Assembly (NCBI GenBank): GCA_965248755.1
Contig: OZ252149.1
Location: 32,001 to 96,000, forward strand
Origin: Candidatus Latescibacterota bacterium
GTDB taxonomy: Bacteria > Latescibacterota > CBDEFO01
DNA: 64,000 nt
Direction of reading: 5' to 3'
Part shown: positions 39,350-55,471 of the stretch, in pieces
Position numbering within the stretch: the stretch's first letter is position 1
How the letters are laid out: each line of letters starts with the position of its first letter
The notes under the pieces: model-generated
What the model saw: the letters and a program-made list of their open reading frames with translations, nothing else
The model's database searches: none
Told to the model about the DNA's origin: nothing
Made by a program: the position numbers and the translations under genes

Positions 39350-39440
39350 CTTTGAAAAATCTCCTTTTTTACGGTAAATTACCGGAAGCGCAAGCGAATC
39401 TGTCTCTAAAGTTTTCCCATCGACCGAGAGATTCCCAGCT

Positions 39441-39683: not shown

Positions 39684-40250
39684 ATGAACGTCCACGATGC
39701 TATTAAGACTCGCCGGACAATTTACAACTTTAAGCCCGACCCGGTACTGCTCAAGGATATAGAGCGCATCTTAAGCGGGTCTGTCTGGGCTCCCAACCAC
39801 AAATTGACCGAACCTTGGCGCTTTGCAGTTGTGACAGGTAAGACTAAAGAGAGGTTAGCCGAGATCAACCGCAGTCTCCAGATGGATTCGTTCAGCGATG
39901 TTGATCCGGAGGACAGGGCAAAACTCGCAGATAAAGCCTTCAAGAAAGTCATGTCCAAGCCGACGATCATCGTCGTCTCCTGCTGTCAGGAGGGCGACGA
40001 ACAGCGGAAAAGAGAGGATTACGCTGCCACCTGCTGTGCGATACAAAACATAATGCTTGGCGCCTGGGAGATGGAGATTGGAATGCAGTGGAGCACTGGC
40101 AAACTGACCCGAAGTGAGGAGACTTACAAGCTCTTGAGCACAGACTCAGCAAAAGAGTACATCGTCGGCTTCCTGTACACAGGCTATCCATCTGAAATTC
40201 ACAAACAAAAGCGTAAGCCTCTGTCTGATGTCACGTCCTGGTGGGACTGA
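39684..40250 (+). CDS. Nitroreductase family protein (YdjA-like)
   Basis: AIKTRRTI, WAPNHKLTEPWRF, CAIQNIMLGA, GFLYTGYP. Confidence 0.92.
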   Translation: MNVHDAIKTRRTIYNFKPDPVLLKDIERILSGSVWAPNHKLTEPWRFAVVTGKTKERLAEINRSLQMDSFSDVDPEDRAKLADKAFKKVMSKPTIIVVSCCQEGDEQRKREDYAATCCAIQNIMLGAWEMEIGMQWSTGKLTRSEETYKLLSTDSAKEYIVGFLYTGYPSEIHKQKRKPLSDVTSWWD

Positions 40251-40338
40251 AGCTTCACATATCTTGAACAACAGCGTGTATATAAGTGCATAAGAAAAGG
40301 ATGGAAAACGGGCTGAGCTTGCTCTCTCTCGACACAGA

Positions 40339-40821
40339 TCACACAAATGTCTTCAAAATTTCCTGTTGGATGCCTTGTAGTTCCGAGTAGGCATCATCGA
40401 TCTCGCTGATCTTCTCTTGAAGCTGCTTTATCAACCTCTGCTTTTCGAGTCCATTTCGGATGATGATCCAAAGGTCTTCGTTCTCCCAGGGTTTCTCGAT
40501 GTACTGAAAGAGTCCAACCTCGTTAATCGCCTTAATGGCGTTCTCTTTATCTGCGTACCCGGTAAGAATAATTCGAGGTACCTCGGGTTTGATTTCTCTT
40601 ACGCGGGCCAGAAAGGTGATCCCGTCCATTTCGGGCATTAGATAGTCCGAAATGACAAGGCCGACTTCGTTGTTCTTAAAGTACTCCAAGGCCTCTTTTG
40701 GCAAAGTGAAAGTGACGACATTATAGTTCGTCTCCAGATCCAAAAAAGAGCTGATACTTGTCAACACCATTTCTTCATCATCGACAATTATAACGGTTTC
40801 TTTTTCTTTTAAGTTTGTCAT
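40339..40821 (-). CDS. Response regulator receiver with coiled-coil tail
   Basis: IVDDE, ISDYLMPEMDG, ILTGY, YIEKPW. Confidence 0.93.
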   Translation of the reverse strand: MTNLKEKETVIIVDDEEMVLTSISSFLDLETNYNVVTFTLPKEALEYFKNNEVGLVISDYLMPEMDGITFLARVREIKPEVPRIILTGYADKENAIKAINEVGLFQYIEKPWENEDLWIIIRNGLEKQRLIKQLQEKISEIDDAYSELQGIQQEILKTFV

Positions 40822-40893
40822 AGGTCTCTCCTATTTATGAATCATCATGTCATCAGATTGTTGTGGACTCCTTGCTATGTGATAAAACATCTC

Positions 40894-43734
40894 TCATCGA
40901 ACCGGCAGAAGTATTCGGAATACTGTGCCTACCCCGACTTGGCTTTCTACCTCTATCTCCCCCCTGTGGTCCTCAATGATCTGATACACAATCGAGAGAC
41001 CCAGCCCAGTCCCAATGCCGAACCCTTTCGTCGTGAATCCGGGATCGAAGATCCGTTCTAGATCCTCTTTGGGGATACCTATTCCGCTGTCCCGAATCTC
41101 TATCACAACGGCACCATCACGAAGGTGGGTCTTGATGAAAATCTCCCCTACCCCTTCGATGGCATGGCTTGCATTCACCAGGAGGTTCATAAAGACCTGG
41201 TTGAGCTGATTGGGGTAACATTTGATAGGCGGGATATCTTCGTAGTCTCTGTGGACTTCGATGCGATTTTTGATTTCGTGGTGAACGAGCGTCAGGGTAT
41301 TTTCAAGTCCCTCGTGGATGTCCACCTCATCCAATTCAGCCTCGTCGAGGCGGGCGAATTTCCGCAGGCTGATAACGATCGCCACGATGCGCTCGGCCGC
41401 TGTTCTGTTGACAGCATTAAGCTTCTCAATGCTTTCGAAGAGTCTGGTCAACTCCGGGTGCTCACGAACTTCTGCCGGAATTTTCGGATCGGACAAAATG
41501 CCCTTCACCTTTGCAAAAGAGCGGATAAAGATGTCGTTGTTGCTCTTAAGTGCCCCAAGGGGTGTGTTGATTTCGTGAGCTACTCCCGCCACCAGATTTC
41601 CCAATGTCGCCATCTTTTCAGTCTGAACCAATTGGGCCTGTTTTTCCCGCAGCTCCCGGGTGCGCTCTTGGACTTTTTGTTCCAATTCTTCGTATGCCCT
41701 CTGAAGCTCTTCCTCTGCCCGCTTGCGCTCCAGCGCATTCACGAATATTGCTCCCACTATCTTAAGTAGTGTGATAATGTCCTCTTCCCACTCTTTTTCT
41801 GCACGTAGCGAACAGAACCCCAGCATTCCAACAAGAGACTTACCATAGACCATAGGAACGGTGACGACCGACTTAACATCTTGCGACTGTAAACGTTCTT
41901 TTTCAGCGCTCGCCTCGTCAGGAAGATCTGCAACTCGAGGGATATAAATGTTCTCGAACCGGTCGAGTTTCTCCATAAGCCACGGGAAGTCACAACAGCG
42001 CATTCCCTTTTGGTTTTCTATTTCCGACTCGATTCCCTCGGTACACCACTCGTGTATATTGTCCAACCTAGTTTGGTCGTGGGACAACAGAGAGATATAA
42101 CTAAGATCGACACCCGCAAACTCTCCAATTTCTTGCATCGCCTGCTTTATCCCACTGTCGATCTCGTCTGATGCGAGGTTGATAAATCTTGTCGATATGG
42201 TGGTGATGAGATCTTCGAATTCAATTCGATGCTGTAGTGTTTCCTCTGCCTGCTTGCGCTCGGTAACATCACGAAAGCTCAACACCCTTCCAACACTTTT
42301 TCCTCCTATCTGCTGAGGCAGGGAATAGCGCTCGAAGATTCTCCCATCTTTAAATTCCAGCACATCGTAGCTCTCTGCATCCGGATGGGCGTACAATTCC
42401 ATTACTTTTTTGAGAAAGCCTTCAGGGTCTTTTAATTGATCGAGGACAAACTCCAGCGCTTGGTCGTCATCCTGCGACTCTACGATTGACTCGGGGATGT
42501 GCCATATCTCTACAAACTTCTGATTAAAGCTCGTCATCTTCCCCTCAGTATCCACTACGAGAATACCGTCGGCAGTTGCGTCGAACGTCGCACGGAGCAG
42601 CGAAAGAGATCTCTCAAGTTCCTCCTCGACCCGTTTGCGCTCGGTGATGTCGCGTCCATATGCATTGATGTAGTCAGTGTCTATCACTGGTGTGAGCAGA
42701 ACCGATAATATCTGGTCTCCGAGCTTGATCTCAATCTCTTTACTCAGTTTGGAGTCGTAAATATCCATAATTAGTTGCTTCCAGTCATCGGGCACAGACT
42801 GACCGGTTTCACAACCCCATTCATTCAATAAAGGCTGGCTGGCGGCGTTGGCATATAGAATGGTGCCATCTTTTGCGGTACGTAGCACGGGATTAGAGTT
42901 TTCAGAGGGGAATTTTGCCAAATCTTCAAGACTTCGGCTGTGTTCCTCTAACATCTTCTTCACCCGCTTGCGCTCTGTGATATCACGCACTGCTGCTGTA
43001 AAAAGAAGACGTTCACCGATCTTTGTTTCTGCAATGCGAATTTCTAAAGGAAACGTTGTCCCATCCTTTTTGAGCCCTTCAAGTTCCAAGCGTTGCCCCA
43101 ATACTTTTTGAACTCCAGTCTTCAAATATCGTTTCATACCAGCAGAATGGAGCCCCCGATATTTCTCTGGCATCAGGTTGTGCATTTTATTGCCGATAAG
43201 TTCTTCCTGCTGGTAGCCCCAGATGTTCTGAACCTCTTGGTTGACCATAACAATAGTGCTGTTTGAATCAATACTGATGATTCCCTCACCAACTGTATCC
43301 AGTACGGCACGAAACTGTGTTTGCGAATTAATTTGCTCCTCCGTCCGTTTGCGGTCGGTCACATCGCGGCAGATCCGTTGGATAACCCTCTTATCGCCAT
43401 AGGTGATCACACTGGCGCTCACATCGATAACTATCAGGGCTCCATCTTTCTTTTGGAAATGGAGGTCATTGTAGATGACACTTCCGGTATTTGCGACCTG
43501 TTTAAAGAGCCACTTTACCGTCTCCTTTTCCTCCGATGGATGGAGATCCCACACCTTCATCCCGACCAGTTCCTTTTGGACATAGCCTGTCATCTGTTCG
43601 GATTTCGGATTGGCCTCAAGGATTTCGCCATTTTCCGTGTCGATGGCAAATATTGCGTCGTTGGCCCGCTCGTACATCTTGCGATATTTCTCCTCGGACT
43701 CCAGCAGGCGCTTTATCTCTTCGTTGTCAGTCAT
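40894..43734 (-). CDS. Multi-PAS / GAF cytoplasmic histidine kinase
   Basis: Four PAS/PAC units ending RDVT/RDIT, a GAF domain, [33 protein letters not shown] 43734 with AAGGAG. Confidence 0.93.
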
Positions 43735-43768
43735 AGGCACTCTCTCCTTTGAAGCGGCAAGCCATATC

Positions 43769-44218
43769 TTATGTCTCACCACCATCGGTCGGTTCCACAC
43801 CAACCCGCCCAATTAAGCTGCGCAACCGCTTCGCAAGAGCCTTAAGGACTTCCTGTGTGATTTGCACGTGATCAGAGAGAAGATCGATAAAATCCTCCCG
43901 ATCGATTCGGAGAAGCTTCGTGTCTTCCAAAGTGGTCGCTGCAGCAACTCGGGGTTCGTCATCGAACAGAGACCAGGTTCCGAAGGCCTCCTTTGGCCCT
44001 GCAACGGTGATCTCCGCGCCGTCGCGATGGAGACGCACGCGCCCCTCTAAGACCAGATATAACGCATCCGACGGGTCCTGCTCTTTGTATATGGTCTCCC
44101 CTCTCGGGAGCGAAACCTCCTCCACAATAGCCGCAAGGTAGGCCAATTGTTCCGTGGAGACATCAGAAAAGACATCCACATTCTGTAGAAATATGAACTT
44201 TTCTATGACCGGAAGCAT
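43769..44218 (-). CDS. Stand-alone cyclic-nucleotide-binding domain protein
   Basis: IEKFIFLQNVDVF, IYKEQD..ALYLVLEG, FGTWSLFDDEPRVA. Confidence 0.9.
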   Translation of the reverse strand: MLPVIEKFIFLQNVDVFSDVSTEQLAYLAAIVEEVSLPRGETIYKEQDPSDALYLVLEGRVRLHRDGAEITVAGPKEAFGTWSLFDDEPRVAAATTLEDTKLLRIDREDFIDLLSDHVQITQEVLKALAKRLRSLIGRVGVEPTDGGET

Positions 44219-44299
44219 AGCAGAAATTCCCTTACAATATCTAATCCATTCTGTTGCTCATTTACTTCGGGTCTACTGAAAGTACCACGAAAATTAATT

Positions 44300-46519
44300 T
44301 TAGATCTCTTCATCCAAATCCATCGGCAACATTACAGTAAATGTTGAACCCTCACCTACCCTGCTTTCTACTTTGATTTCCCCTTTGTGATCCTGAATAA
44401 TTTGGTAACAAATCGACAAACCTAAACCTGTCCCAACTCTCACACCCTTTGTCGTAAATCCAGGATCAAACACTTTTTCAAGATTTTCCTCAGGGATGCC
44501 AACTCCGTTATCTTGAATGGCCACGTGCACTTTGTGATCTTTTTGAAATGTGGTGATGGTGATCTCTCCCGTATCCTCTATGGCCTGCTTAGCATTGACC
44601 AAAATATTAAGAACAACCTGATTCAATCTGCGCGGATAGCAGACAACCGGAGGAATCTCGCCAAAAGTTTTTATCACTTTGATGCGGTTCTTTAAATCAT
44701 GATAGATTAAAGTCAAAGTGTCCTCTATCCCCTCGTGGATGTCCACTTCCTTCAACTCAGCTTCGTCCAATCTGGCAAAGCTCCGCAGGCTCTTGACAAT
44801 GTTCGTCACGCGATCAGAACCGGTTGTGATCACCTGGTTGGCGTCTGCAATGACCTTCAGCGCCGCGTTAAATTCACGGTTATCTTGACACTCTTTCGGG
44901 AATTGCGTTTCAAGGGTGGTCTTCAGTTTTTCCAAAGCGCGCATTGAGGTATCGTGCATGCTCTTTATGGCTCCGACGGGCGTATTGATCTCGTGGGCAA
45001 CGCCTGCTACCAGATCGCCCAATGCCGCCATCTTTTCAGACTGCACCAACTGGGATTGAGTTTCACGCAAATCTAGATTGGCATCTTCTAACTCACTTAA
45101 AACTTTTTGCAACTTGCGGGCCTCTTCAAGCTCTTGGGTTTTGCGGGCATTATCAGCCTCTACAATCTTTCGCGCCATTTCCTCTTCTTTGGCCAGGCGT
45201 TCCTGCTCTATCGTCTTGGCGGACAGCTCCTTAACCTGCATGAGCTGTGCCTCGAGGTCTTTGTTCGTTCGGGCAAAGCTGCGAGCTAAATACACGGACA
45301 TCGAAATAAGAAAGCAGAGAGTCCCATAAACATAGATTTCGTCAGATATAGCCTTTAAGACCTCGAGTTCTATCAGAATCTGGTAGGTGCAAGCAAAGAT
45401 AAAAGCCACGCCTCCAATGCCAATAATCCACGCACCGTCTTTTTTCTTTAGGACGGCCACGAAGATCACTCGGAGCATTTCCACAAAAGTTACCAGAGCA
45501 AACAGGTATATATAGAGAATAGGGGCATACCAGGACCAGCCCCCCAGAACTATTCCGCCTGCGAGCAAAACCCAGAACGGCCTGGGCAACTTGGGGTAAA
45601 AAAGTTTGTATAAAAATCGGACCCCAGAAACGCATGTAAGTAATACTGCCACCTTGAACAGCCAAAAATTAAATAAAAGCTGTCCTGAGTCTCTTAAAAA
45701 TATACCTTCGTAGCCTGTGAACGTCAAGGCCGTAATACTGGCCGTAAAGGCAGCGTAGTAGAGATTTTCTCTTGATCGAGGGTAGAACAGAAAGAGCAGA
45801 AGATGCAGCAATGTAAAGGCGAGGGGAACGCCCGAAAAAAACATCTGATAGGCTGCTAATCTCCTGACCCATAATCCACTGAGTTCTAAACTGTTCTCCA
45901 ATTCTCCTAAACCAATGGAAAAGCCCGCAGGATCGTAGACCGTCTTGTTGAAAGTTTCGGCACGGAAGTTTGAGTAGCGCACAGCTATAACGTGTTCGGC
46001 GCTCCGCGGGCGCTCTGACGGGGAGGTGGAAGGCCGCGACAGTGGTCTGCCGTCAAACGAAATGAGTTTCGGGGGGTCTAGCACCCCAAGAGAGTGATGG
46101 CCTTCTTCTTCCGCTTTTGAAGTTCCGACCTTACCGAAGGTATATATCAGCTTGCCGTCCAAGTAGATTTCAGCCGCACCTGTCTGATGATAAATCAGGG
46201 CTAATGGTCTATTCCACAGTGTAGAGTCAACTGCAACGTGCAGTCTGAACCAGCCAATTCCTTTCCAGCCGCCTTTCGGAAGTTTGTCCGACTTAAGCCG
46301 TGTGTCTACAGTTTCCCATAAACTGTCATCAAACTCCGGGTCGGCCCAGGCAGAATTATCGCCTGCGTGATATTTCCAGTTTCTAAAGAACTCGATTACG
46401 CGGTCCTCGTCCTTCAGGCTGTCCGCCGAAAGAACGATTCTCCCATCAACCTGAGCAGATGCCGGTGAAGTAGGCAGAAAGTACAAGCCCACAAGAACAA
46501 ACAACAGAATCTTTCTCAT
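44300..46519 (-). CDS. Membrane histidine kinase with periplasmic sugar-binding-like domain and 7TM-DISM-like region
   Basis: Signal peptide, WKYHAGDNSAWADPEFDDSLW, GIGWFRLH, about seven TM helices, [20 protein letters not shown]. Confidence 0.88.
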   Translation of the reverse strand: MRKILLFVLVGLYFLPTSPASAQVDGRIVLSADSLKDEDRVIEFFRNWKYHAGDNSAWADPEFDDSLWETVDTRLKSDKLPKGGWKGIGWFRLHVAVDSTLWNRPLALIYHQTGAAEIYLDGKLIYTFGKVGTSKAEEEGHHSLGVLDPPKLISFDGRPLSRPSTSPSERPRSAEHVIAVRYSNFRAETFNKTVYDPAGFSIGLGELENSLELSGLWVRRLAAYQMFFSGVPLAFTLLHLLLFLFYPRSRENLYYAAFTASITALTFTGYEGIFLRDSGQLLFNFWLFKVAVLLTCVSGVRFLYKLFYPKLPRPFWVLLAGGIVLGGWSWYAPILYIYLFALVTFVEMLRVIFVAVLKKKDGAWIIGIGGVAFIFACTYQILIELEVLKAISDEIYVYGTLCFLISMSVYLARSFARTNKDLEAQLMQVKELSAKTIEQERLAKEEEMARKIVEADNARKTQELEEARKLQKVLSELEDANLDLRETQSQLVQSEKMAALGDLVAGVAHEINTPVGAIKSMHDTSMRALEKLKTTLETQFPKECQDNREFNAALKVIADANQVITTGSDRVTNIVKSLRSFARLDEAELKEVDIHEGIEDTLTLIYHDLKNRIKVIKTFGEIPPVVCYPRRLNQVVLNILVNAKQAIEDTGEITITTFQKDHKVHVAIQDNGVGIPEENLEKVFDPGFTTKGVRVGTGLGLSICYQIIQDHKGEIKVESRVGEGSTFTVMLPMDLDEEI

Positions 46520-46567
46520 AGTAGTTCTTCTATAAGTTTAAAATTCATCAATTCTTATACCTTGATG

Positions 46568-49348
46568 CTATCCATTGTTCAGCACCATATTTGCAGTTTC
46601 ACGAACCACAGGGTCCAGGTCGTTTTGAGCTTCCTCGGCCAATCTCATCAGTGTTGGGGAATCTGTCCCCACAACGTTATAAATCGCACAGGCCCTCAAC
46701 CAGGCATCGCGGCCACGAATCAGATGTACCAAGGCCTCTTCTTTGCTTTTTATCCGCTCTCTAAACAGCTCCTGTCCCTTTTGAATGGTGATTTCAAGAG
46801 AGACTTGGTCCAGGAAGGGAAAGAGATATTTCTTTATATCCTTGTTCAGCACAGTATCCAAGAACTCGATTGCGCTGGCATGCACCGCCTGTTTGCTGCT
46901 TACGATCCCCTGATAGGCGCTGTACATGTCTTTTGGCGGATAGCGCAGTCCTAATAGTCGGAAGATTCGCTCTAAACTCTGCTCCTGCTTTTCGATGAGA
47001 ACCTGCTTCAGGAGTTTGGAAGCGGTGCCATCTTGAGTCTCTCCCCGATTGCTTCCATCGGGGATCACATCCTGGATCTGTAGGATCTCGTAATAGGATT
47101 TTGTCTCTTGGATCAACGTGGCATCGACCTTACTTTGATCGAACCTCAACTGTTGGTATCTGGCGCGCAGTTTATTCAACGCCTTGATCAGGTGATATTT
47201 GAGAGTGGGATCTGCACTTTTCATGCCTTCTATAAGGATATCGACAGACTTTTGGGCTGGTATTTCGCTCAACACACGGGCGATGTTGCCCCGGAGTGAT
47301 ACCGATACATCCACGGTCTCGTCCCTGAGATAATCGTTCAAGGTGTCCAGAATTCGAGATCCAAATGCAGCCAAAGCCATGCGAGCATCGGCGCGGTATC
47401 GCTTATCGGAAAGTTTTTCTATCAACAACGCTACGAACTCCTGATCTCTTGTGCGGCCTGAACTTTCGATGGCCTGTCTGACAACTCTCGGAGATGGATC
47501 TTCCATCAGCTTGAAAAGATACCTTCGGAAGCTGGGATTGTCCAGACGCCCCAATGCTTTTGCCATCTGCTCCCGCCCCAATTCTCCCTCTTTTCCCTTA
47601 CGGTCCAGAAACGATTGGATTACCTTCTCATCGATCAGATGTCTTTCCTCGGATAAACCGTACTCTGCGATGCAGCCGATCGCCGCCGCTTGTATCTTGA
47701 GATCCGGGTCTTCCAGATAGCCCTTGATCCGGTCTATGTGGTTTCCTTTGGGATGCCGGCATAGGAAGAGCATAGTCTCAAGACGCACCTGTTGATCATC
47801 ATCTTTCAGAAGCTCCTCAATTTTGGACTCAAGGACCCCGTCTCCCTGGGTCCCGAGCACTCGAACAGCCTGCCTACGCACTTCGGAAGATCTATGTTTC
47901 AAAAGACGTTGTACCGGCTCTAATAGTCCCGCATCTTTCACGGATGTTAGGAGATCAAGTGCATAGACCACCTGCCGTTCATTGGTACTTGCAAGGGCAG
48001 CTATAAGGGCGTTGACCGTGGACGCCTCCGAGATGTCCATTCTGAGTTCATCCAGATCGATTTCGCGTCCCTCCAGAGCCTTCCGGAAGGCGTTCACATA
48101 TTCCTTGCGGACGAGTATACAAAAGAGAATCCACACAATCAAAAGGGCTATAACAAGGATACTGATTTGCCTTATGGAGAATCCAAAAACAACGGTAAAA
48201 AGCAGCAAAAGTGCGCCGGCAATACCACGTGACCACCGTTCCACAAACACATCAATGAAGATTTTGGTACGCTTCTTAATCTCCATAGGTACCGGGAGGG
48301 ACAACAGTTCAAAGCCTGTTTTGTTAATAGAATATCCTAAGCTTCGGTCAACCCCACGCAGAAAGATGCCCGCCCACAAGCCCGGCGCTATGAGCATCCC
48401 TACGGAACCGAATAACAGGCCGATGGGAAGAAACATAATGGTGCCCCCCACACCCAGAACTCTCAGGAACCGGTAGGTAAAGAGCGATTGAAACAGCAAA
48501 GCGACCAGACTCAGGCGGCCGTAAAATTTCCCCAAGAACGACGTAAGATCTTCTTTTGCGGGAAACTCCTCGGCAGAGATCGTTTTGAATTGGAAATCGA
48601 CAAAGGAAGCGGTCATCACCATCAAAGAGATGATTCCCACGAGAAGCATCAACTGCCGGGAGCGACGAATTGTCCTGAACATTTGGCCGAGCGTCTCCTT
48701 GCCTTGCTCTCTGATTTTGACAGGGTCGGGCTGTTCCTGGCTCTCCTTCTGTCCGATCGTCCAAATGATGTTTAAGAGAAAGATGCAGATTGTCAAGAAT
48801 CCTATGCATAAAAAGAGTAAATTCTCCGTTGACATTCCGAAGACGCGCACAACCAGGCTGGTTACCTCTCCTCCTGTGAAGGCCCCGAAGATCCCCCCCA
48901 GATTCAAAAGTACAAAGAGTCGTTTGGCCTGAGCCGGGTTAAACACTGTGTTGGCAAGGAGCCAGAACTGGGAGGTGATCGTTATGCCGTAAATGGCCAC
49001 CCAAATATAGAAGACGTAGTATACCCAGGAGTAGTCCAGTTGAATCAACCATCGCAGGATCAAGAGGCTGGCGATGAGAACAGCAGTAGTGGCATTCATC
49101 AGTTGTGTAAGCTTCAAAAAACGGGTCAATCTGACGTAGACCGTGATCATCGGAAGAGCGACCAAGGCAATGAGAATAAAGACGATAGGAAGCTGTTCCG
49201 GACCGATCCGCACCAAGAATAGACCGTCTCTTGCCGGTTTAAGCAAATAGTAGGCCACCAGCACCAAGTAGTAGTAGATAAACATCAAAAAGGTAAGTGT
49301 AAACTCTCCTTTTCGTATGTCCACTATTGAACCTAAAATGCGCTTCAT
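46568..49348 (-). CDS. NTT/TLC (Npt1-like) nucleotide transporter fused to HEAT repeats
   Basis: YYLLKPARDGLFL, QFWLLANTVF..QAKRLF, VDFQFK, KIFIDVFVER; then HEAT repeats (VRRQAV, VRLET, DPVVRETA); ATG at 49348. Confidence 0.88.
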   Translation of the reverse strand: MKRILGSIVDIRKGEFTLTFLMFIYYYLVLVAYYLLKPARDGLFLVRIGPEQLPIVFILIALVALPMITVYVRLTRFLKLTQLMNATTAVLIASLLILRWLIQLDYSWVYYVFYIWVAIYGITITSQFWLLANTVFNPAQAKRLFVLLNLGGIFGAFTGGEVTSLVVRVFGMSTENLLFLCIGFLTICIFLLNIIWTIGQKESQEQPDPVKIREQGKETLGQMFRTIRRSRQLMLLVGIISLMVMTASFVDFQFKTISAEEFPAKEDLTSFLGKFYGRLSLVALLFQSLFTYRFLRVLGVGGTIMFLPIGLLFGSVGMLIAPGLWAGIFLRGVDRSLGYSINKTGFELLSLPVPMEIKKRTKIFIDVFVERWSRGIAGALLLLFTVVFGFSIRQISILVIALLIVWILFCILVRKEYVNAFRKALEGREIDLDELRMDISEASTVNALIAALASTNERQVVYALDLLTSVKDAGLLEPVQRLLKHRSSEVRRQAVRVLGTQGDGVLESKIEELLKDDDQQVRLETMLFLCRHPKGNHIDRIKGYLEDPDLKIQAAAIGCIAEYGLSEERHLIDEKVIQSFLDRKGKEGELGREQMAKALGRLDNPSFRRYLFKLMEDPSPRVVRQAIESSGRTRDQEFVALLIEKLSDKRYRADARMALAAFGSRILDTLNDYLRDETVDVSVSLRGNIARVLSEIPAQKSVDILIEGMKSADPTLKYHLIKALNKLRARYQQLRFDQSKVDATLIQETKSYYEILQIQDVIPDGSNRGETQDGTASKLLKQVLIEKQEQSLERIFRLLGLRYPPKDMYSAYQGIVSSKQAVHASAIEFLDTVLNKDIKKYLFPFLDQVSLEITIQKGQELFRERIKSKEEALVHLIRGRDAWLRACAIYNVVGTDSPTLMRLAEEAQNDLDPVVRETANMVLNNG

Positions 49349-49374
49349 CTTGTGCCCTTTGGCCGTAGACAGCA

Positions 49375-49452
49375 GTAGGGGCGAACCCACGTGTTCGCCC
49401 GATTTATCCGTATTTTCAGGGCAGAACATAGGTCTGCCCCTGCAGTGTTCGC
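49375..49452. repeat. GTAG-type REP doublet
   Basis: GTAGGGGCGAAC-ccacgt-GTTCGCCC plus inverted AGGGCAGA-acatagg-TCTGCCCCTGC between the two NTT genes. Confidence 0.85.
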
Positions 49453-49467
49453 CCTCGGATAAAACCT

Positions 49468-50808
49468 TTATGCAGATGGAGATGGAACAGGGGACGCTTC
49501 GGTCATCTTCTGGAACGATCGTCCGGCAACCCGCGCAGCCAGTATCCAGACAACGACAATAGCAGCGGTGGCAAGCGACAGCCACCGGATAGTGCTGAAC
49601 TCAGAGAATACCAGTGTGATCACCAAGAGGAGACCCACAGACAGTGCCTTTGCAAAACGCTGGACGAACATATCGATAAACGCCTTGGCCCCATATTTCT
49701 CCTCTCTCGTGGTCGGCACGTAGAGGACCTCCTTGGCCAACTGGTTCATCGAATAGCTGAAGCCACTGTCACAGGTATTCAAAGCGCTGCCAAGGAGCAG
49801 CACCGGTGCGATCATAAAACCGGTCGAACCGAGCAAGACGGTCACCGGCAGGAACAGTAGGGCCGTACCCACACCAAAACGGGTCATGACTAAGCTGGTG
49901 AGGAGAAGCTGCACAAACAGGGCCACACCGTTGGAAACGACGTATACTGTGGCAAGATGGACGGTATAAGCCTCCTTAACCAGGTAATGTGTGACAGTCT
50001 CCTTGAACTGGAAATCCATAATGGTCGAGACCATCTCGTAGAGACCAACAATCGCCATGATGGATAGTAGGTAACGGGATCGGAACACTAAGCGTGCGCC
50101 CTCCAAAGCCGGATTGCCTGCCGCTTGAGTCTCCTTCTTCTGTGATACCTCAGGTGGCGGGCGGCGAGATACTATCCTGCCGACGATCATTGCGATAAGG
50201 ATGATGATCATGGCGATCCCCAGGCAGATCCAGAGCCACTCAGAGGAACTCAGATCTTTCACTTTTGCCCTGAGCACTAAAGACCCAAAGGCGCCCCCCG
50301 TCACACCTCCCAGGCCGATCAGGCCGTAGAGCCGTTTCGCCGTATCGGGATCTACACTGTCGTTGAGAAAGGCAAAAAAGGTAACCACCATCAGCGTGCT
50401 GAATAGGTCTCCAAATAGGTAGAAGGACCAGACTGTTACGTCGCCCGGGGTATCCAGCACGGTACTGTAGAGGACATAGCAGGCGATGAAGAAGCCGGAG
50501 AAGATGTAGGTGAGTTGTTGGCGCCGAAAGTATCGGGCCAGAAGAGTGAAGACCGTTACAGCCACAAATGCCACGACCATGTTCAGCACCTTGGCAATCA
50601 GTTCCGCCTGGGCCGGACGCAGGTGCCAGTAGAATATATCGAAACCGATTTCATCATAATACCAGAGGAAAAGCCCACTTTTGATCGGCTTGAGGATCCA
50701 GAAGCTGGCGATGACCAGGAAGAAGTAGAGGAACATCAACAGTGCCAGCGGAACTTCCTCACGCCGGATGTTCATAATCTGTCTGAAAGGATTCGCCTGA
50801 GATGCCAT
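49468..50808 (-). CDS. NTT/TLC (Npt1-like) nucleotide transporter
   Basis: FWILKPIKSGLF, AKRLYGLIGLGG, MDFQFK, LYVPTTREEKYGAKAFIDMFVQRFAK; about 12 TM helices. Confidence 0.88.
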   Translation of the reverse strand: MASQANPFRQIMNIRREEVPLALLMFLYFFLVIASFWILKPIKSGLFLWYYDEIGFDIFYWHLRPAQAELIAKVLNMVVAFVAVTVFTLLARYFRRQQLTYIFSGFFIACYVLYSTVLDTPGDVTVWSFYLFGDLFSTLMVVTFFAFLNDSVDPDTAKRLYGLIGLGGVTGGAFGSLVLRAKVKDLSSSEWLWICLGIAMIIILIAMIVGRIVSRRPPPEVSQKKETQAAGNPALEGARLVFRSRYLLSIMAIVGLYEMVSTIMDFQFKETVTHYLVKEAYTVHLATVYVVSNGVALFVQLLLTSLVMTRFGVGTALLFLPVTVLLGSTGFMIAPVLLLGSALNTCDSGFSYSMNQLAKEVLYVPTTREEKYGAKAFIDMFVQRFAKALSVGLLLVITLVFSEFSTIRWLSLATAAIVVVWILAARVAGRSFQKMTEASPVPSPSA

Positions 50809-50832
50809 ATACGCTCCGATCTTATAGGGGAG

Positions 50833-52560
50833 TTATTCCTCGCGCTCGATCCGCACAATCTGATAGTGTCCCGATTCCCACACGTAAAAATAGACCCTTG
50901 TATATTTGGATGTCTGACCGTCACGTAGGGTCCGGATCTCGTACCCGTAAAACTGCCTCGCAGTCAGATTTTCCTCCAGAGGGATAAGAGTCTCCCCGCG
51001 CAGTATCTTTTCTGGGCCGATCGCCTTCCCCCGGTCGTTCAACAGCCTATACCGATAGGTCGTCTCCGATAAAGAGGCGAGTTTCCCACGCACGGCTAAG
51101 TCTTCAAACTTCATCCCTTTGCTGTCTATGGAAAACCGATCGAGGGGATTGATCTTGCCAAACCAGTAGCGTCCTATTATGTCCCGGCGTTCGATCAAAA
51201 GGCGGGTCAGTTCCACCTCCGCTTTCGGGTTGGATAAGCGTCCGGTCTTTACCATCGCCGCGATCTCCTCATCCGAGAACGACATAACGATTTTGGCACC
51301 CCAGTAGCCGTCCCGGTTGGTGCGCCGCTGAAACGCCGGGTTAGGATAGGTGGGCGACCACCTCCCCGGATGGAAGACCTCACTTTCGAAATACCCGATG
51401 GAGGGATATTTCATCGGCAGGGGATCCTCCCACGCCTTCTTGTAGAAGCCCAGTGCAAAGAGCGACAGCCCGATATTCCGAGGGTCGAAGACATATTCGT
51501 TCCCGTACATTGGAGGATGGGGCATCCAGTAGTTGCTGCCAATTGTAGACCCCATGTCGATGAGGTAGTGCTTGATGTAGCGTCGTCCCTTTTCGTCGGT
51601 CACGTACATATCCAGCGTGTTGGCGGCGCGCCGGTCGCTGTCGTTTATCCAGGAGCCGATGACCCGCAGGCCGCGCAGTTCCCGCCGATGCTGATGTTTC
51701 ACCCGGTCGTTCGGGTCGTCCCTGCGCCGGCCGTGAAAATTGAAGACGCCGACAGGAACAATTCCTTCTAAAAACTCGCTTGCCAGGCACCGCAAGCGGC
51801 CGTCGGGTTGAACGGGGATGTGATTGAGAATGCCGCGAAGATCGGCTTCGGTCATCGGACGTTTAGTGCCTCCAGGTGCCGGTACCTTCGCCTTCGGGCC
51901 GATCTTCAGAATGGACGGATCAAAAAAGACGACGGAGTTTTTGGGGACGCTGTACCCAGAAGCGTACAGAATCTTGGTCGAAATCGTCTCCGCTGCGGAG
52001 GCCATCTCCTCGTTCCTCTCGGCGTCGAACTTGAGAACGAATATAGTTCCGGATACATCCTTGATCCTAAAGCCAGCTGATCCCCCTTCGAACTTACCCT
52101 TGATGATCTCCCAGGGACCGCTGGTATCGGGCTGGGCAACGCCCGGACCCCGCATCAGCTCTTCAATCGTCATCGGGCGGTGGAAATGCCGGTTGGTGTA
52201 CCAGGAGGAGTCTGACGCCTCATCCAGGGCGTTGACGTTATCGGCCTGCTTGACGGGGACTATGTTAAGCAGATTTCCGACCCGCCGTGCAGTCCAACCG
52301 AGGTCGAGGAGCTTGCCGACTTGATAGAAAAGTGTCATATCTATGATGTCCCAGATCTGGTTTTCCTTGACCTCCTTCGGCTTTGGTATGGTCTTGTTGT
52401 CCGCGTCGAACCACTTGATAGGCTTCGTCTTTAGGTTTAGCCCGGAGCCGCAACCCGTCATTATTAGAAGACAGTAGACAGTGGTCAGTAGACGGAGGCA
52501 CCATCTCCCCTCCCTGTCTACTGTTTGCTGTTTGCTGTTTACTCGCTTTTCTGTATCCAT
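50833..52560 (-). CDS. Uncharacterised lipoprotein with atypical (PI3K/HipA-like) kinase motifs
   Basis: Lipobox IMTGC; GKFEGGSAG, FVLKFD, EMASAAE, INDSDRRAAN, YLIDMG. Confidence 0.65.
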   Translation of the reverse strand: MDTEKRVNSKQQTVDREGRWCLRLLTTVYCLLIMTGCGSGLNLKTKPIKWFDADNKTIPKPKEVKENQIWDIIDMTLFYQVGKLLDLGWTARRVGNLLNIVPVKQADNVNALDEASDSSWYTNRHFHRPMTIEELMRGPGVAQPDTSGPWEIIKGKFEGGSAGFRIKDVSGTIFVLKFDAERNEEMASAAETISTKILYASGYSVPKNSVVFFDPSILKIGPKAKVPAPGGTKRPMTEADLRGILNHIPVQPDGRLRCLASEFLEGIVPVGVFNFHGRRRDDPNDRVKHQHRRELRGLRVIGSWINDSDRRAANTLDMYVTDEKGRRYIKHYLIDMGSTIGSNYWMPHPPMYGNEYVFDPRNIGLSLFALGFYKKAWEDPLPMKYPSIGYFESEVFHPGRWSPTYPNPAFQRRTNRDGYWGAKIVMSFSDEEIAAMVKTGRLSNPKAEVELTRLLIERRDIIGRYWFGKINPLDRFSIDSKGMKFEDLAVRGKLASLSETTYRYRLLNDRGKAIGPEKILRGETLIPLEENLTARQFYGYEIRTLRDGQTSKYTRVYFYVWESGHYQIVRIEREE

Positions 52561-53555
52561 TTGCCAGGTCCCACAGGTTTGAGCGAAAAGTCCAGGCTAT
52601 CCCTTTCTATGGTCACAAGCACGTAGTGGTCGCCTCGGTAGGCTACAGCCCGATACTTAGGCGTCTCCTTTGAAGGTGTATGCGTAGGAGCGCCGCCGCC
52701 GCCGGTGACCACAAAATCGACCCCACGATAGATATAGTGTTCGTAGAAGTGGCTGTGTCCCGTAAAGACTACAGTCCGGGCGTAGGGGTCCTTCTCCTTT
52801 CGCCGCGCAAGGTGATCAGCTAAAACCTTTCGCAGACGCTGCTCCTGGGGTCTGGGTACATGTCCTTTGTTCCATCTGAACAGAAACCGCCGGGCCAGCC
52901 CCCCCGAGCCGCTGGAAAATACCGTGTGATGGAGCACTACAAACAGGAAGCGACTTTCGGATGCCTCGTCCAGGCGCTCTCGGAACCACCGGGCATGGAC
53001 ATTTGTCGAATCTTCCGCTCCGATCCAGGGTGGCATTGTCGAATCGATAAAGATGAAGTAGGTGTCTTTCATATGGAAGGCGTAGCTTGAAGCCTGTCCG
53101 ATCGTCTCACCAAAGATATTGACGTAGTCGTCGCTGTCCCCTCCTTTGTGGTCATGGTTGCCCCGGACCGGATAGAAAAACCGTGGCTTCAAGAGAGGTG
53201 TCGTATCCTCTTTGAAGTACGTCCAGAGCAATTTGTCCACGCCGCGCTTCACCAGATCTCCTGTGTGGATCACGAAATCGGGGGACTCTTTTGCGATGGT
53301 CTCTACCACCGCCCGGCGTCTGCGGCGGCGGGCGGAATCATAGCGTAAATCCTTTGGATTTTTGCTGATTCGATTGTCTCCATACACTACAAAGACAACA
53401 GTATCCCTCCGAGCAATAGCCAGGCTGATCGGAGGCGGCACGGACGCCCGTAAACCTTTTTGCGTTAGTCTCGGTGCGGCGCATCCGCCCGCGATCAGGA
53501 GCAGAACAAGCATCCCAAGCCAGATCGACACGGAGTGGGCGTACCACCTCGCCAT
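52539..53555 (-). CDS. Calcineurin-like metallophosphoesterase, probable lipoprotein
   Basis: YGDNR, HTGDLV, GNHD, LHH, GHSH, TGGGG; lipobox IAGGC; alternative start at 53648. Confidence 0.88.
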   Translation of the reverse strand: MARWYAHSVSIWLGMLVLLLIAGGCAAPRLTQKGLRASVPPPISLAIARRDTVVFVVYGDNRISKNPKDLRYDSARRRRRRAVVETIAKESPDFVIHTGDLVKRGVDKLLWTYFKEDTTPLLKPRFFYPVRGNHDHKGGDSDDYVNIFGETIGQASSYAFHMKDTYFIFIDSTMPPWIGAEDSTNVHARWFRERLDEASESRFLFVVLHHTVFSSGSGGLARRFLFRWNKGHVPRPQEQRLRKVLADHLARRKEKDPYARTVVFTGHSHFYEHYIYRGVDFVVTGGGGAPTHTPSKETPKYRAVAYRGDHYVLVTIERDSLDFSLKPVGPGKWIQKSE

Positions 53556-53644
53556 CCGGCCTTTCCCCCGAAAAGTCCTTCGTCCACTTCGTGGCTTGCT
53601 GCCTCCCCAGCAAAGCGGCCATACTGCCTTTCGGGGGACTCTGA

Positions 53645-55093
53645 TCAAAATTTCTGCTCCAGTGTAAACCCCACAAGCGCCTCCTCGGCAGCGCTGTGGC
53701 CAACCCGCAGCTTGCCCAGGAAACCGGTTTCGGACCCGAAAATGATCCCGCCTCCATAGGAAGTCCGGAATCGATCGAAATAAATCTGATCGTAGTCGTC
53801 GAAGACCTGTCCCTCATCCCAAAATAGGAAGGCGTTCCATCTCCCTCTCAAGGAGTCCCAGATCGGATACCGGTATTCAGCGCTCAAAAGCAGTGATCCT
53901 TCACCCCTTAAAAAGCCGCGGTGATAGCCCCTCAAGTGATAGCTTCCAAAGATCGCCAGATCCGGGTACGGGATAATACCGTCTCCGATCCGATGAGCCT
54001 TCTCCAGACGTGCCCGCAACGCCAGGATCCGGTTGCGGAAGAAGAGAGTAAAAAACCGCTGGACTTCAGCTGTCACCTGCACAAAGCGCACATCATCAGA
54101 TCCGATCACATAGTCCGCCTCGGCCTGCAATAGTCCCCCACGTTCGGGGTAGAAGATGTCCCGAAAGTTATGATAGAAGCCGTCGGTATAGATGATGACT
54201 CGGCCTGGGAAACGGTAGATTAAGGGATGGGAGATCTCCCGCTTAGGCCCTTGGTAGTCCCTGTCGTCGTATGAGATTTGTACCCCGAACGAGTAGAGTG
54301 CGATAACATCCGCCAGCCCGATCAGCAACCGGGCCTGAGACGTGGATCCTGGGTCGGTCAGTGTCCCTTCTGGTTCGAACTGCTGTCGGAAATCTCGCCG
54401 TCCGTATCCGAACCTGACCTCTATATAGACATTTTTCTGATAGGGCTCCAATTCCCTTGCATGGGGACGCCACCCGAGCGTCGTCAACGCGTCGAGCCTC
54501 TCGATCTGAAACCGGCGCGTCGAGTGGTCCCGCACAGCGCCGTTGATAGAGGCACTTCTGTGGCGGGTACGGAGAAAGGTCGCCTCGCTCCTCGAGTAGA
54601 GGCGACTTCCCGCCAGGTTCGGATCGAAGTAGAGGACATCACCTCTCTGCCCGCGTCCCCCAGAATAGACGAAGAGGCCCTCAAACCGTTTTCCCCTCCC
54701 GGCAATGTTCGAGTGGAAGACTCTGACGCCGCCCCCGGTCCCAGTCTCTCCTCCTAACTGAACATGGGGAAAGATGCCGAACGTCCGGTCTGCGTTCATA
54801 AACAGGTTCATAGTCCGAGTCGGCAGATGAGTATGCTCCGCCCAGATCGTGAACTTCTTCAGGGGATGTAAGATCAGATTCATCAATGACTTGGGAATGG
54901 TTTGTGGAACGGAGAGGAAGTGCCCTGCAACGCTTCCCTTCGACTCGTAGACATCGTTTGTATCGATCTCCGCGGTCTGCTGTGGGTGGGCGGGCGATGC
55001 CCCGACCAAAGTCAGACCAATACAAAGTGGTAAGACGTGCACTCCGTATGCGACCACTGCGTGTAGAAGTGCTGAAAATAAGCTTCGTTCCAT
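53645..55093 (-). CDS. Omp85 (BamA/TamA-like) outer-membrane beta-barrel protein
   Basis: Amphipathic beta strands, DRD..YPERG, loop motif LRGY, SAEYRYPI, FWDEGQV, terminal Phe (VGFTLEQKF). Confidence 0.85.
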   Translation of the reverse strand: MERSLFSALLHAVVAYGVHVLPLCIGLTLVGASPAHPQQTAEIDTNDVYESKGSVAGHFLSVPQTIPKSLMNLILHPLKKFTIWAEHTHLPTRTMNLFMNADRTFGIFPHVQLGGETGTGGGVRVFHSNIAGRGKRFEGLFVYSGGRGQRGDVLYFDPNLAGSRLYSRSEATFLRTRHRSASINGAVRDHSTRRFQIERLDALTTLGWRPHARELEPYQKNVYIEVRFGYGRRDFRQQFEPEGTLTDPGSTSQARLLIGLADVIALYSFGVQISYDDRDYQGPKREISHPLIYRFPGRVIIYTDGFYHNFRDIFYPERGGLLQAEADYVIGSDDVRFVQVTAEVQRFFTLFFRNRILALRARLEKAHRIGDGIIPYPDLAIFGSYHLRGYHRGFLRGEGSLLLSAEYRYPIWDSLRGRWNAFLFWDEGQVFDDYDQIYFDRFRTSYGGGIIFGSETGFLGKLRVGHSAAEEALVGFTLEQKF

Positions 55094-55322
55094 AACGGGC
55101 AGGCCTTTCCAGGCGATAGGCTAACTTTCAACTATCCTTGATTACGACCACCTCAAGAGTATCTGGCATTGTTCCCTTTCCAATATTATTTGACAAAGGA
55201 GATCGAAACATTCGATCAATATTTTCGTAATATAGGTTCCCATCTTGGTCAACGCAAGCGGAAAATGCACTCATACTAAGCGCCCCTAAATAGACAAAAC
55301 AGAAAAGCAAGGGTTTTTCTAA

Positions 55323-55471
55323 CCCGAATAATTCGTGAAATCTGAGAAGTCTGCATAAATACTGGACTTTCCAGTTATCGCACGAAAACAAAGTTTCTTA
55401 GCCTAAATTGTATAATCGATTGTCGTACATAGAATTATAGAAATTTTCAGCAAGTTTATGAATTAATCAGG
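55323..55471. mobile_element. Putative MITE, copy 2
   Basis: CTAA-CCCGAATAATTCG...TTTATGAATTAATCAGG-CTAA; same termini as 17399-17625. Confidence 0.7.

Follow-up and report, generated by a model that had tools for sequence, protein, structure and literature searches.

The DNA considered here, a stretch of 64,000 nt referred to as the window, originates from a Candidatus Latescibacterota bacterium and corresponds to positions 32,001-96,000 of the forward strand of contig OZ252149.1 (assembly GCA_965248755.1); all coordinates of the cluster are given in window numbering. Positions 40339-55093 are filled by nine open reading frames (ORFs), all of which are located on the minus strand, and the Pfam matches agree with the domains that a preliminary description of the locus had assigned to nine co-directional genes. 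The run starts with the genes for an Omp85-family barrel of 482 amino acids (53645-55093; PF01103, 48.8 bits), a predicted lipoprotein metallophosphoesterase termed MPE (52539-53648, the longest ORF comprising 369 codons; PF00149, 42.6 bits at a cut-off of 21.5) and a predicted lipoprotein of 575 amino acids without a Pfam family, designated P3 (50833-52560). These are followed by the genes for NTT1, a TLC/NTT-type MFS carrier of 446 amino acids (49468-50808; PF03219, 77.6 bits), and NTT2-HEAT, a TLC-type carrier with C-terminal HEAT repeats (46568-49348, the longest ORF reaching to 49585; PF03219, 48.1 bits; HEAT_2, 99.3 bits). The remaining four genes encode a 7TMR-DISM histidine kinase of 739 amino acids (44300-46519; PF07695, HisKA, HATPase_c), a stand-alone cyclic-nucleotide-binding (cNMP) protein of 149 amino acids (43769-44218; PF00027, 77 bits), a soluble PAS/GAF histidine kinase of 972 amino acids (40894-43812; PAS, GAF, HisKA, HATPase_c), and a single-domain response-regulator receiver of 160 amino acids (40339-40821; PF00072, 93.7 bits).

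When the longest ORFs are considered, neighbouring genes either overlap (by 4, 22, 118, and 44 nt) or are spaced by 24, 48, 81, and 72 nt. The 118-nt overlap turns into a gap of 119 nt if NTT2-HEAT begins at the ATG at 49348, a start which we prefer because the N-terminus then resembles that of NTT1. A nitroreductase gene on the plus strand (39684-40250) marks one boundary of the cluster. At the other, upstream of the barrel gene, a region of about 930 nt without a confident gene (55094-56027) separates the barrel gene from divergent plus-strand genes; its small ORFs gave no Pfam match, and neither a tRNA nor an Rfam match was found in it. Promoter-like sites number 17 in this region, compared to 13.6 ± 3.9 in shuffled sequences, and a promoter may be located here, although none is established. 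The region also contains a 160-nt repeat.

The barrel, P3 and the exported phosphatase

The barrel protein is composed of a signal-like N-terminus, two N-terminal helices (residues 55-87 and 90-98) and a TamA/BamA-like barrel, for which TamA (4c00) was the closest Foldseek match of the AF2 model (pLDDT 75.8; E 2.3e-11). Two lid-lock motifs, LRGY in loop 6 (387-390) and FWDEG in strand 13 (424-428), were recognised by eye using the motif definitions in the accessible part of PMC11358297, and together with the PF01103 match and the fold they place the protein in the Omp85 superfamily. Since no POTRA Pfam match was obtained for the barrel protein, only two helices precede the barrel, and the BamA model TIGR03303 scored no more than 27 bits at a cut-off of 297, the protein is assigned to the POTRA-less class of this superfamily and not to the BamA, TamA or TpsB subfamilies, which carry one or more periplasmic POTRA domains.

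In 45 of the 58 loci that could be tested, i.e., those offering 1300 nt of flank or more, a barrel gene is located directly upstream of the P3 gene on the same strand. A model of the barrel-P3 complex reached an ipSAE of 0.61 in three runs, compared to 0.00 for the best of three controls; of the pairs used to calibrate this score, 116 of 157 solved complexes and 2 of 215 mismatched pairs came up to this value. Contacts agree between the runs to at least 70%, with a partner pLDDT of at least 83. According to the model, P3 would contact the N-terminal helix of the barrel protein and the turns 352-355 and 409-423; as these turns follow the LRGY motif of loop 6, they should by Omp85 topology face the periplasm, so that the side of the barrel to which P3 is assigned depends on the model and on this topology. 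The modelling thus speaks for a partnership of P3 with the periplasmic face of the barrel, in agreement with the association of kinase and barrel proposed in the preliminary description.

P3 represents a large family (2773 clusters at 50% identity) for which no Pfam model exists. Its predicted structure (pLDDT 94.6) displays the two-lobed kinase fold of the CtkA/Fam20/CotH/HipA/PI4KII group. Helices at the N-terminus precede the atypical kinase domain (residues ~133-470), and the C-terminus is formed by an FN3-like sandwich (~469-563). Among 86 aligned relatives, K177 (95%), D309 (96%), N314 (91%), and D335 (94%) are highly conserved and occur in the order lysine, DxxxxN, and DFG-like aspartate; that they correspond to the catalytic residues known from solved kinases is deduced from motif order and secondary structure rather than from superposed coordinates. 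An acidic/basic motif at positions 282-296 is strictly conserved. The P3 protein of the window matched no Pfam family at E ≤ 1 and hence no kinase family, HipA_2 and HipA_C were weakly matched by 12 (best E 7.4e-5) and 11 of the 86 relatives, respectively, and the Fam20C and CotH models by none of them, so that P3 stands as a separate family among the proteins with this fold. We infer that P3 is an exported kinase-fold protein which may possess kinase activity. The barrel-P3 pair was also compared with two-partner secretion systems, defined by a TpsB protein with two POTRA domains and a TPS partner, and was not assigned to them, as no POTRA domain was detected in the barrel and no Pfam domain in P3.

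The hydrophobic N-terminus of P3 ends in a lipobox-like cysteine (C37), with which a cysteine is aligned in 57 of the 86 relatives; those N-termini of the others that were inspected look like signal peptides. The likely start codon of MPE, an ATG at about position 53555, is located just ahead of a hydrophobic stretch and a lipobox cysteine. Read from the sequence, these features predict that both proteins are bacterial lipoproteins, as had been noted before. The motifs GD, GNHD, and GHSH of MPE, likewise read from the sequence, and its family match are those of calcineurin-like metallophosphoesterases; a search for solved structures related to it by sequence yielded none (best E 0.16). Relatives of MPE were found beside P3 in 5 of 75 loci, mostly after rather than before the P3 gene, and the unrelated phosphatase PAP2 in 16, one or the other being present in 21. 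Of the kinase/phosphatase pair postulated in the preliminary description, the recurrence of an exported phosphatase is therefore retained; two unrelated types alternate, however, and MPE itself is not a fixed member.

Carriers, regulators and their linkage to P3

Both carriers exceed the PF03219 cut-off of 21 bits. With the model for NTP/NDP exchange transporters, TIGR00769, they reached 63.4 (NTT1) and 37.3 bits (NTT2), which is below the cut-off of 387.2 and indicates that they are distant members of the family. A solved structure related to NTT1 is that of the plastid ADP/ATP carrier 9j3j (E 1e-12). ATP may be the substrate of both proteins, which in the reading given below would export rather than import it. 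NTT2 shows the NTT-HEAT architecture, with TLC and HEAT_2 in one ORF and a cNMP gene two genes downstream; in many related loci the cNMP gene follows directly. NTT-HEAT carriers with a following or fused cNBD gene have been described from Cyanobacteria and Chlamydiae (Major, Embley and Williams 2017, PMC5381601); according to the accessible part of that paper, carriers of this clade occur in free-living bacteria, where their function is unknown, and characterised NTTs import energy and nucleotides from host cells.

Linkage was surveyed in neighbourhoods of 10 kb around 75 P3 loci. A TLC carrier gene was present within this distance in 42 of them, in at least seven gene orders, and in 25 of the 34 loci for which 8 kb or more is available on either side. 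P3-carrier linkage was observed in at least seven phylum-level groups, as labelled in the database records, and the position of the carrier gene varies with the lineage (before the barrel gene, after the P3 gene, divergent or convergent); such differing orders point to selection for proximity rather than to inherited gene order. In a sample of 121 genomes of the phylum, counted by hand, 35 carry P3, and 19 of these have a TLC match no more than 10 kb away from it; of the 22 genomes in which TLC is matched at E ≤ 1e-6, 16 have P3 at such a distance. In the closed genome of the bacterium considered here (4.54 Mb), the only P3 gene adjoins the only two TLC genes. Since the same linkage recurs elsewhere, the grouping exceeds what chance would give. 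The association is nevertheless not universal. P3 and the barrel occur without a nearby TLC gene in 33 of the 75 loci, including all 11 loci of Gemmatimonadota, 3 of Poribacteria, and 2 of Haliangiales. Three single-contig genomes with P3 (G032, G040, G073) contain only a borderline TLC match (~22 bits) megabases away, and in two others (G007, G051) the carriers are located 1 to 2.7 Mb from P3. Conserved linkage, on which the preliminary description had made its proposal depend, is thus found for the barrel as well as for the carriers, the latter with the restriction that whole lineages do without them.

The regulatory genes recur as well. In Ignavibacteria, Zixibacteria, and other loci, relatives of the 7TMR-DISM histidine kinase adjoin NTT2-HEAT. 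For the cNMP-binding protein, 21 of 75 loci have a relative no more than 10 kb from P3, mostly right after NTT2-HEAT. The PAS/GAF histidine kinase has relatives in clusters of the Zixibacteria type and in that of locus L047, and relatives of the receiver (E 1e-68 to 1e-77) close the run of carrier and cNMP genes in many loci. Clusters that combine a barrel with a kinase-like enzyme and a phosphatase, both exported, and with two transporters of the ATP/ADP-carrier type occur in several bacterial phyla.

Possible function of the cluster

The gene cluster suggests that ATP is shipped into the periplasm and drives phosphorylation there. This reading starts from gene content, domains, conservation, linkage, export signals, and a kinase fold that is modelled with confidence and has its catalytic positions conserved, and we consider it the best one available, tentatively and with a probability of roughly 40%. 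The cluster would then represent an envelope phosphorylation module, in which the lipoprotein kinase P3 is docked on the periplasmic face of a POTRA-less Omp85 barrel in the outer membrane, and its mark may be removed by an exported phosphatase, the lipoprotein MPE here and PAP2 in other lineages. Two NTT-type carriers in the inner membrane would exchange cytoplasmic ATP for periplasmic ADP and in this way provide the phosphate donor, a supply that the HEAT domain, the cNMP-binding protein, the two histidine kinases, and the receiver might tune from the cytoplasmic side. Free ATP in the periplasm is expected to leak through porins, which counts against the export of ATP. The low TLC scores of both carriers, the loci with P3 and barrel but no carrier gene, and the lack of a kinase Pfam match for P3 of the window likewise speak against this reading. 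The gene arrangement reported in the preliminary description is confirmed, and its interpretation is partly supported.

It is rather unlikely that the cluster consists of two separate modules which are merely neighbours or co-regulated, with nothing passing between them. Barrel, P3, and phosphatase would in this case act on an envelope component with a donor other than ATP, or P3 would be non-catalytic, and the NTT-HEAT, cNMP, and two-component genes would form the nucleotide-import or sensing unit already described. The recurrence of the linkage in so many groups (by record label) and gene orders, the position of the genome's only two TLC genes beside its only P3 gene, and the nearly invariant signature of a nucleotide-dependent kinase in P3 argue against such a separation, which, on the other hand, would account for the 33 loci and the entire lineages with barrel and P3 alone and for the closed genomes that carry P3 without a nearby carrier. 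It also agrees with the accessible parts of two papers, in which NTT-HEAT and cNBD form an independent unit in other phyla (PMC5381601) and periplasmic lipid A phosphorylation uses undecaprenyl pyrophosphate, not ATP (PMC2229476).

Improbable in our view is a scavenging route for nucleotides or phosphate, in which exported phosphoesterases process external nucleotides or organophosphates, the NTTs import the nucleotides, and the barrel together with P3 acts as a receptor or conduit; this was the alternative offered in the preliminary description. Exported MPE and PAP2 enzymes are typical of scavenging, and import is the direction reported for characterised NTTs (PMC5381601, accessible part), yet a kinase with conserved catalytic residues is not needed for it, the barrel, which has lid-lock motifs, belongs to the TamA/BamA type and not to a porin type, and no more than 21 of the 75 loci include a phosphatase. 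Quite improbable, finally, is an export in two-partner style, in which the barrel carries P3 to the surface or into the medium to act as a kinase there, the carriers being unrelated or otherwise used; CtkA of Helicobacter pylori, a surface or secreted kinase, would be the model. The predicted barrel-P3 contact is also compatible with this idea, and a barrel gene followed by that of its passenger is the order typical of two-partner secretion (PMC11358297, as far as accessible); the same source, however, holds that lid-lock motifs of the BamA/TamA type argue against a translocation pore. Also at odds with it are the missing POTRA match of the barrel, the absence of a TPS or any other Pfam domain from P3, the lipid-anchor cysteine in 57 of 86 P3 relatives, and predicted contacts on turns that probably face the periplasm.

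Comparison with known systems

Fam20C, the Golgi casein kinase, and the glycan kinases of the Fam20B type are enzymes of the secretory pathway, the lumen of which depends on imported ATP. Their identity to P3 is only about 8-13%, no member of the P3 alignment matches the Fam20C Pfam model, and P3 is predicted to be a lipoprotein of the bacterial envelope, partnered by an Omp85 barrel. The cluster also has carriers of the NTT/MFS type instead of the SLC35 type of the Fam20 kinase pathway. The atypical bacterial Ser/Thr kinases HipA, CtkA, and HipT are cytoplasmic toxins or, in one case, a secreted effector; P3 differs from them by its lipoprotein signal, N-terminal helices, FN3-like tail, and the motif at 282-296, and none of the eight neighbouring genes, which have other Pfam assignments, was recognised as antitoxin-like. 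With the BAM (BamA and BamB-E) and TAM (TamA and TamB) complexes, the cluster shares the TamA/BamA-like barrel fold and a lipoprotein predicted to dock on the periplasmic side, whereas its barrel has no POTRA match, its score with the BamA model TIGR03303 is 27 bits at a cut-off of 297, the partner has a kinase fold instead of a BamB-E fold, and a TamB-like gene is absent from the cluster according to Pfam. POTRA-less Omp85 proteins, also termed noNterm proteins, are reportedly treated by Heinz and Lithgow (2014, PMC4104836).

Two further known arrangements are comparable. The NTT-HEAT/cNBD unit (PMC5381601) shares the TLC carrier with C-terminal HEAT repeats and a cNMP gene in the same run, so that this part of the candidate new system of the preliminary description was already in print; here a histidine kinase gene is inserted between the two, and neither an Omp85 barrel nor a kinase-like lipoprotein or a phosphatase is mentioned as linked to the unit in the accessible part of the paper. 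No paper was found in which the whole module of barrel, P3, and carriers is described. The POTRA-less Omp85 paralogs of Leptospira (PMC11358297, accessible part) have in common with the barrel of the cluster the 16-strand type, the lid-lock motifs, and the missing POTRA match, and there, too, a lipoprotein gene of unknown function is located immediately downstream; those lipoproteins are DUF1566 or Big-domain proteins, whereas the one encoded here is kinase-like.

Organization of the gene run and its borders

Nine successive open reading frames lie on the minus strand between positions 40339 and 55093, and the preliminary description of this run was correct in number, strand and domains as named by Pfam, which recognizes eight of the nine products. 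They comprise the genes for an Omp85-family barrel of 482 aa (53645–55093; PF01103, no POTRA match), a metallophosphoesterase (52539–53648; Pfam), a 575-aa predicted lipoprotein designated P3 (50833–52560; no match in Pfam or NCBIfam), a TLC carrier (NTT1, 49468–50808; PF03219, 77.6 bits), and a second TLC carrier with fused HEAT repeats (NTT2-HEAT, 46568–49585 as the longest ORF; Pfam), followed by four genes whose products are assigned by Pfam as a 7TMR-DISM histidine kinase, a cyclic-nucleotide-binding (cNMP) protein, a PAS/GAF histidine kinase, and a receiver protein. Adjoining genes overlap or are separated by at most 81 nt, except at the junction of NTT1 and NTT2-HEAT, where a likely ATG at 49348 leaves a gap of 119 nt. 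Both P3 and the phosphoesterase possess a hydrophobic N-terminal stretch with a terminal lipobox-like cysteine.

The run is bordered on one side by a nitroreductase gene on the plus strand and on the other by about 930 nt without a confident gene, beyond which divergent genes are located. A scan of 39500–56500 gave 17 promoter-like sites (13.6 ± 3.9 in shuffled sequences) and 18 terminator-like sites (15.7 ± 4.1), counts which carry no information on operon structure; none of nine sequencing runs found for 46400–55200 was listed as RNA. RNA genes were found neither by an Rfam scan of 39500–56500 nor by a tRNA scan of 55000–56200. The genome, a single contig of 4.54 Mb, contains P3 once and TLC genes twice, and these three genes lie next to one another. 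A genome of the same genus (G002) contains neither P3 nor a TLC gene; the flanks of the cluster are found there on different contigs with only 70–76% identity, and this arrangement gives no evidence that the cluster was inserted or deleted in one piece.

Several further features were noted in the surroundings. A stretch of 160 nt located 5' of the barrel gene (55317–55476) has a second copy of 99% identity in the same genome (G000:C1:217306-217465) and a copy of 97% identity in G002, where the flanking genes otherwise share only 70–76% identity. No tRNA or Rfam family matches this stretch, which may represent a mobile element of small size or an uncharacterized RNA. Short dispersed repeats (approximately 55–80 nt, 77–96% identity) occur at about 55770–55860, with many matching places in both genomes, and at about 35618–35674, with many matching places in G002. 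A protein of 665 aa with two PPIC-type peptidyl-prolyl isomerase domains (SurA/PpiD-like) is encoded at 37649–39646 on the same strand as the cluster, approximately 700 nt downstream and past the nitroreductase gene.

The P3 family and its predicted barrel partner

In a word-indexed search with P3, 8000 candidates were scored and 5147 of them matched at E ≤ 1e-3; the 120 of these that were listed carry no Pfam domain, and such names as they have read "hypothetical protein". In an exhaustive search the family comprised 2773 clusters at 50% identity, of which 767 reached E ≤ 1e-30. The family is thus very large, and it has no Pfam model. An alignment of P3 with 85 near-full-length sequences, picked from the 150 representatives listed, contains ten invariant positions, and residues K177, D179, D309, N314, H331, and D335 are conserved in at least 90% of the 86 proteins. 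Similarity in sequence to known kinase families is faint: HipA_2 is matched weakly by 12 of the 86, whereas P3 itself matches no Pfam family, and no PDB entry was recovered by a sequence-based profile search, whose best E of 0.074 fell on the FN3-like tail. The AlphaFold model of P3 (pLDDT 94.6, pTM 0.92) was matched best by Foldseek to the Golgi casein kinase Fam20C (E 2.4e-6), and the further best matches were other Fam20 proteins, CtkA of Helicobacter pylori, type II PI 4-kinase, and CotH. A cysteine is aligned to C37 in 57 of the 86 proteins, and among the remaining ones the N-termini inspected resemble plain signal peptides. Based on the N-termini, the fold model, and the conserved residues, P3 is an exported, usually lipid-anchored protein whose fold is that of an atypical kinase and whose catalytic signature looks intact, and from this we infer kinase activity. 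In the phylum sample described below, some P3 genes appear to be broken, with two in-frame TAG stops at G118:C88:66673-68193 and with matches divided into pieces at G070:C1:950811-954053 and G058:C26:4031-4953.

The barrel protein was modelled (pLDDT 75.8) with a signal-like helix, two helices at residues 55–98, and then the barrel; the closest structures are TamA and BamA (4c00, E 2.3e-11), and its score is far below the cut-off of the BamA model. Lid-lock motifs, as defined in PMC11358297, are present as LRGY (387–390) and FWDEG (424–428). Together with the lack of a POTRA match, these features place the protein in a POTRA-less class of Omp85 barrels. The neighbourhood of P3 was surveyed in 75 loci around its relatives, which were taken from genome records without exclusions. 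Of the 58 loci that extend at least 1300 nt upstream of P3, 45 have a barrel gene on the same strand ending at most 500 nt from the P3 start; the locus of the closest relative (L001) is outside this number because the phosphoesterase gene separates barrel and P3, as it does in the window.

A complex of barrel (residues 37–482) and P3 (residues 37–575) was modelled with a barrel alignment of 35 relatives, picked by length among ORFs from greedy longest-ORF calling. Three runs gave ipSAE scores of 0.60–0.62, compared to 0.00 for the best of three controls, with at least 70% of contacts in agreement and a partner pLDDT of at least 83; in the calibration of this score, which is only approximate with custom alignments, 116 of 157 solved complexes attained the same level, as did 2 of 215 mismatched pairs. 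The model supports binding of P3 to the barrel, in line with the association proposed beforehand. The predicted contacts involve barrel residues 46–52, 75–86, 352–355, and 409–423 and, on the side of P3, residues 278–291, beside the invariant D282, D285, and H289, as well as a hydrophobic helix at about 360–368. In solved Omp85 barrels, loop 6 with the LRGY motif is extracellular, with which PMC11358297 is consistent, and therefore the turn at 413–418, which follows strand 12, should face the periplasm like the N-terminus. This leads to a predicted position of P3 beneath the barrel, on its periplasmic side. Altogether, an exported kinase-fold protein partnered with a barrel is probable.

Two barrel–P3 pairs, either arranged in tandem or separated by some tens of kb, were observed in the genomes of six loci (L001, L005, L006, L013, L022, and L062) and in seven sampled genomes (G059, G077, G085, G087, G094, G102, and G110); among those inspected, a carrier gene adjoins just one copy. 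In one locus labelled Poribacteria (L024:2365-3753), a second Omp85 gene comes after P3, and this one does have a POTRA domain.

Carriers, phosphatases, and signalling proteins near P3

Locus counts were based on six-frame stop-to-stop ORFs, as greedy longest-ORF calling misassigned genes in GC-rich loci. A TLC-type gene is located within 10 kb of P3 in 42 of the 75 loci and in 25 of the 34 having at least 8 kb on both sides, and thus the linkage proposed in the preliminary description recurs elsewhere. According to the group labels in the record titles, such a gene is present in Latescibacterota (10 of 13 loci), Zixibacteria (7/9), Ignavibacteria (8/9), Salinivenus, Salinibacter, Rhodothermales, and other Bacteroidota-labelled records (8/8), KSB1 (1/2), Calditrichia/Calditrichaeota (1/3), and Eisenbacteria (1/1), and in none of the loci of Gemmatimonadota (0/11), Poribacteria (0/3), and Haliangiales (0/2). 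The gene order varies by lineage and includes barrel, P3, NTT1; barrel, P3, NTT2-HEAT, NTT1; and barrel, P3, phosphoesterase, NTT1, NTT2-HEAT, cNMP gene, receiver. In other cases the carrier is ahead of the barrel, the arrangement is divergent (Ignavibacteria) or convergent (Zixibacteria), or a run of carriers lies upstream of P3 (L011). Within a sample of 121 genomes from the same phylum as the window, P3 was found in 35 and a TLC match in 53. Counted by hand, 19 of the 35 P3 genomes have a TLC match within 10 kb on the same contig, and among the 22 genomes whose TLC match reaches E ≤ 1e-6, 16 have P3 at a distance of 10 kb or less. Several genomes missing the linkage are fragmented assemblies; genuine exceptions are G007 and G051, with carriers 1 to 2.7 Mb from P3, and the single-contig genomes G032, G040, and G073, which possess P3 and only a borderline TLC match (about 22 bits) far off.

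The exported phosphatase had been proposed as a member of the module, and this holds in part: a metallophosphoesterase of the window type adjoins P3 in just 5 of the 75 loci, usually after P3, but an unrelated PAP2 phosphatase gene is near P3 in 16, so that either type occurs in 21. The occurrence of two unrelated exported phosphatases at one position next to an exported kinase is suggestive of extracytoplasmic phosphorylation that can be reversed. Since the best match of the phosphoesterase among solved structures, a purple acid phosphatase, reached only E 0.16, it was left without a subfamily. In 21 of the 75 loci, a relative of the cNMP-binding protein is encoded at most 10 kb from P3, and in many of these NTT2-HEAT is followed by receiver and histidine-kinase relatives; the pairing of NTT-HEAT with a cNBD is already described in PMC5381601.

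An exported protein of 410–428 aa is encoded after P3 in eight loci labelled Zixibacteria or Ignavibacteria (L033:11704-12981; L026, L034, L042, L043, L049, L050, and L075), in five of them with the PAP2 gene directly next. It has no match in Pfam or the PDB, and its sole structural lead is a likeness to RelA/SpoT nucleotidyltransferases with a TM score of 0.37–0.38, below the bar of the tool; if real, this likeness would indicate a further nucleotide-using enzyme outside the cytoplasm.

A possible route of ATP to a periplasmic kinase

That the module is real and conserved can be regarded as highly probable. In the mechanism which we propose for it, the barrel would anchor P3 and hold it in position on the side of the outer membrane that faces the periplasm, where P3 would phosphorylate some envelope substrate and the exported phosphatase would undo this modification. 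The NTT carriers would swap cytoplasmic ATP for periplasmic ADP and thereby supply the phosphate donor, and the HEAT domain, the cNMP-binding protein, and the two-component proteins might control this supply. To our knowledge, all known activities of the fold group of P3 use a nucleotide, which makes the adjacent nucleotide-type carriers a natural supply. The direction of an antiporter is set by gradients, and in a free-living cell ATP would move outward.

The complete mechanism, with ATP export feeding a periplasmic kinase under the barrel, is given a probability of roughly 0.4. Of the preliminary interpretation, the conserved linkage and the association of barrel and P3 are supported by the survey and the complex model, whereas the metallophosphoesterase is seldom present and many genomes contain P3 without carriers. 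The latter also speaks against ATP export, as do the NCBIfam scores, by which the carriers are distant members of their family, and the expected leakage of ATP through porins. Two independent modules which are merely neighbours or co-regulated would be the leading alternative, an unlikely one, to be set against the recurrence of TLC genes near P3 and beside its frequent occurrence without them. Improbable is a scavenging route for nucleotides or phosphate, formed from the same carriers and exported enzymes, and slightly more so is export of P3 to the cell surface in a two-partner style, for which the barrel gene 5' of P3 would be the partner and in which P3 would not stay at its predicted position under the barrel. 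ATP export to a barrel-docked kinase may apply more widely, and it is equally tentative that free-living diderms of several phyla send ATP to the periplasm via NTT-type antiporters, fuelling such a kinase, with exported phosphatases reversing its action.

The periplasm is generally regarded as being without ATP. The module makes both this question and that of what NTT carriers do in free-living bacteria concrete and testable, since it offers a defined set of genes, a predicted kinase with catalytic residues which can be mutated, a predicted barrel–kinase interface, and carriers which can be assayed in E. coli. The proposed mechanism is therefore directly testable, and it would be surprising if true. 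Should ATP export fail, two results would still stand: a family of exported lipoproteins with a kinase fold, very large and not covered by any Pfam model, and a partner dedicated to one class of Omp85 barrels, the POTRA-less ones. The wide distribution of NTT carriers, free-living bacteria included, was reported in 2017 (PMC5381601). In titles and abstracts of the papers listed on NTT-HEAT proteins, on Fam20/CotH periplasmic kinases, and on periplasmic ATP or ATP export, no account of the module was found, although other papers and supplements may hold more. The components belong to known superfamilies, and their combination matches no described system that we found; if the mechanism is true, it would contradict the view of a periplasm without ATP-driven chemistry and would represent a bacterial counterpart to the kinase system of the eukaryotic secretory pathway.
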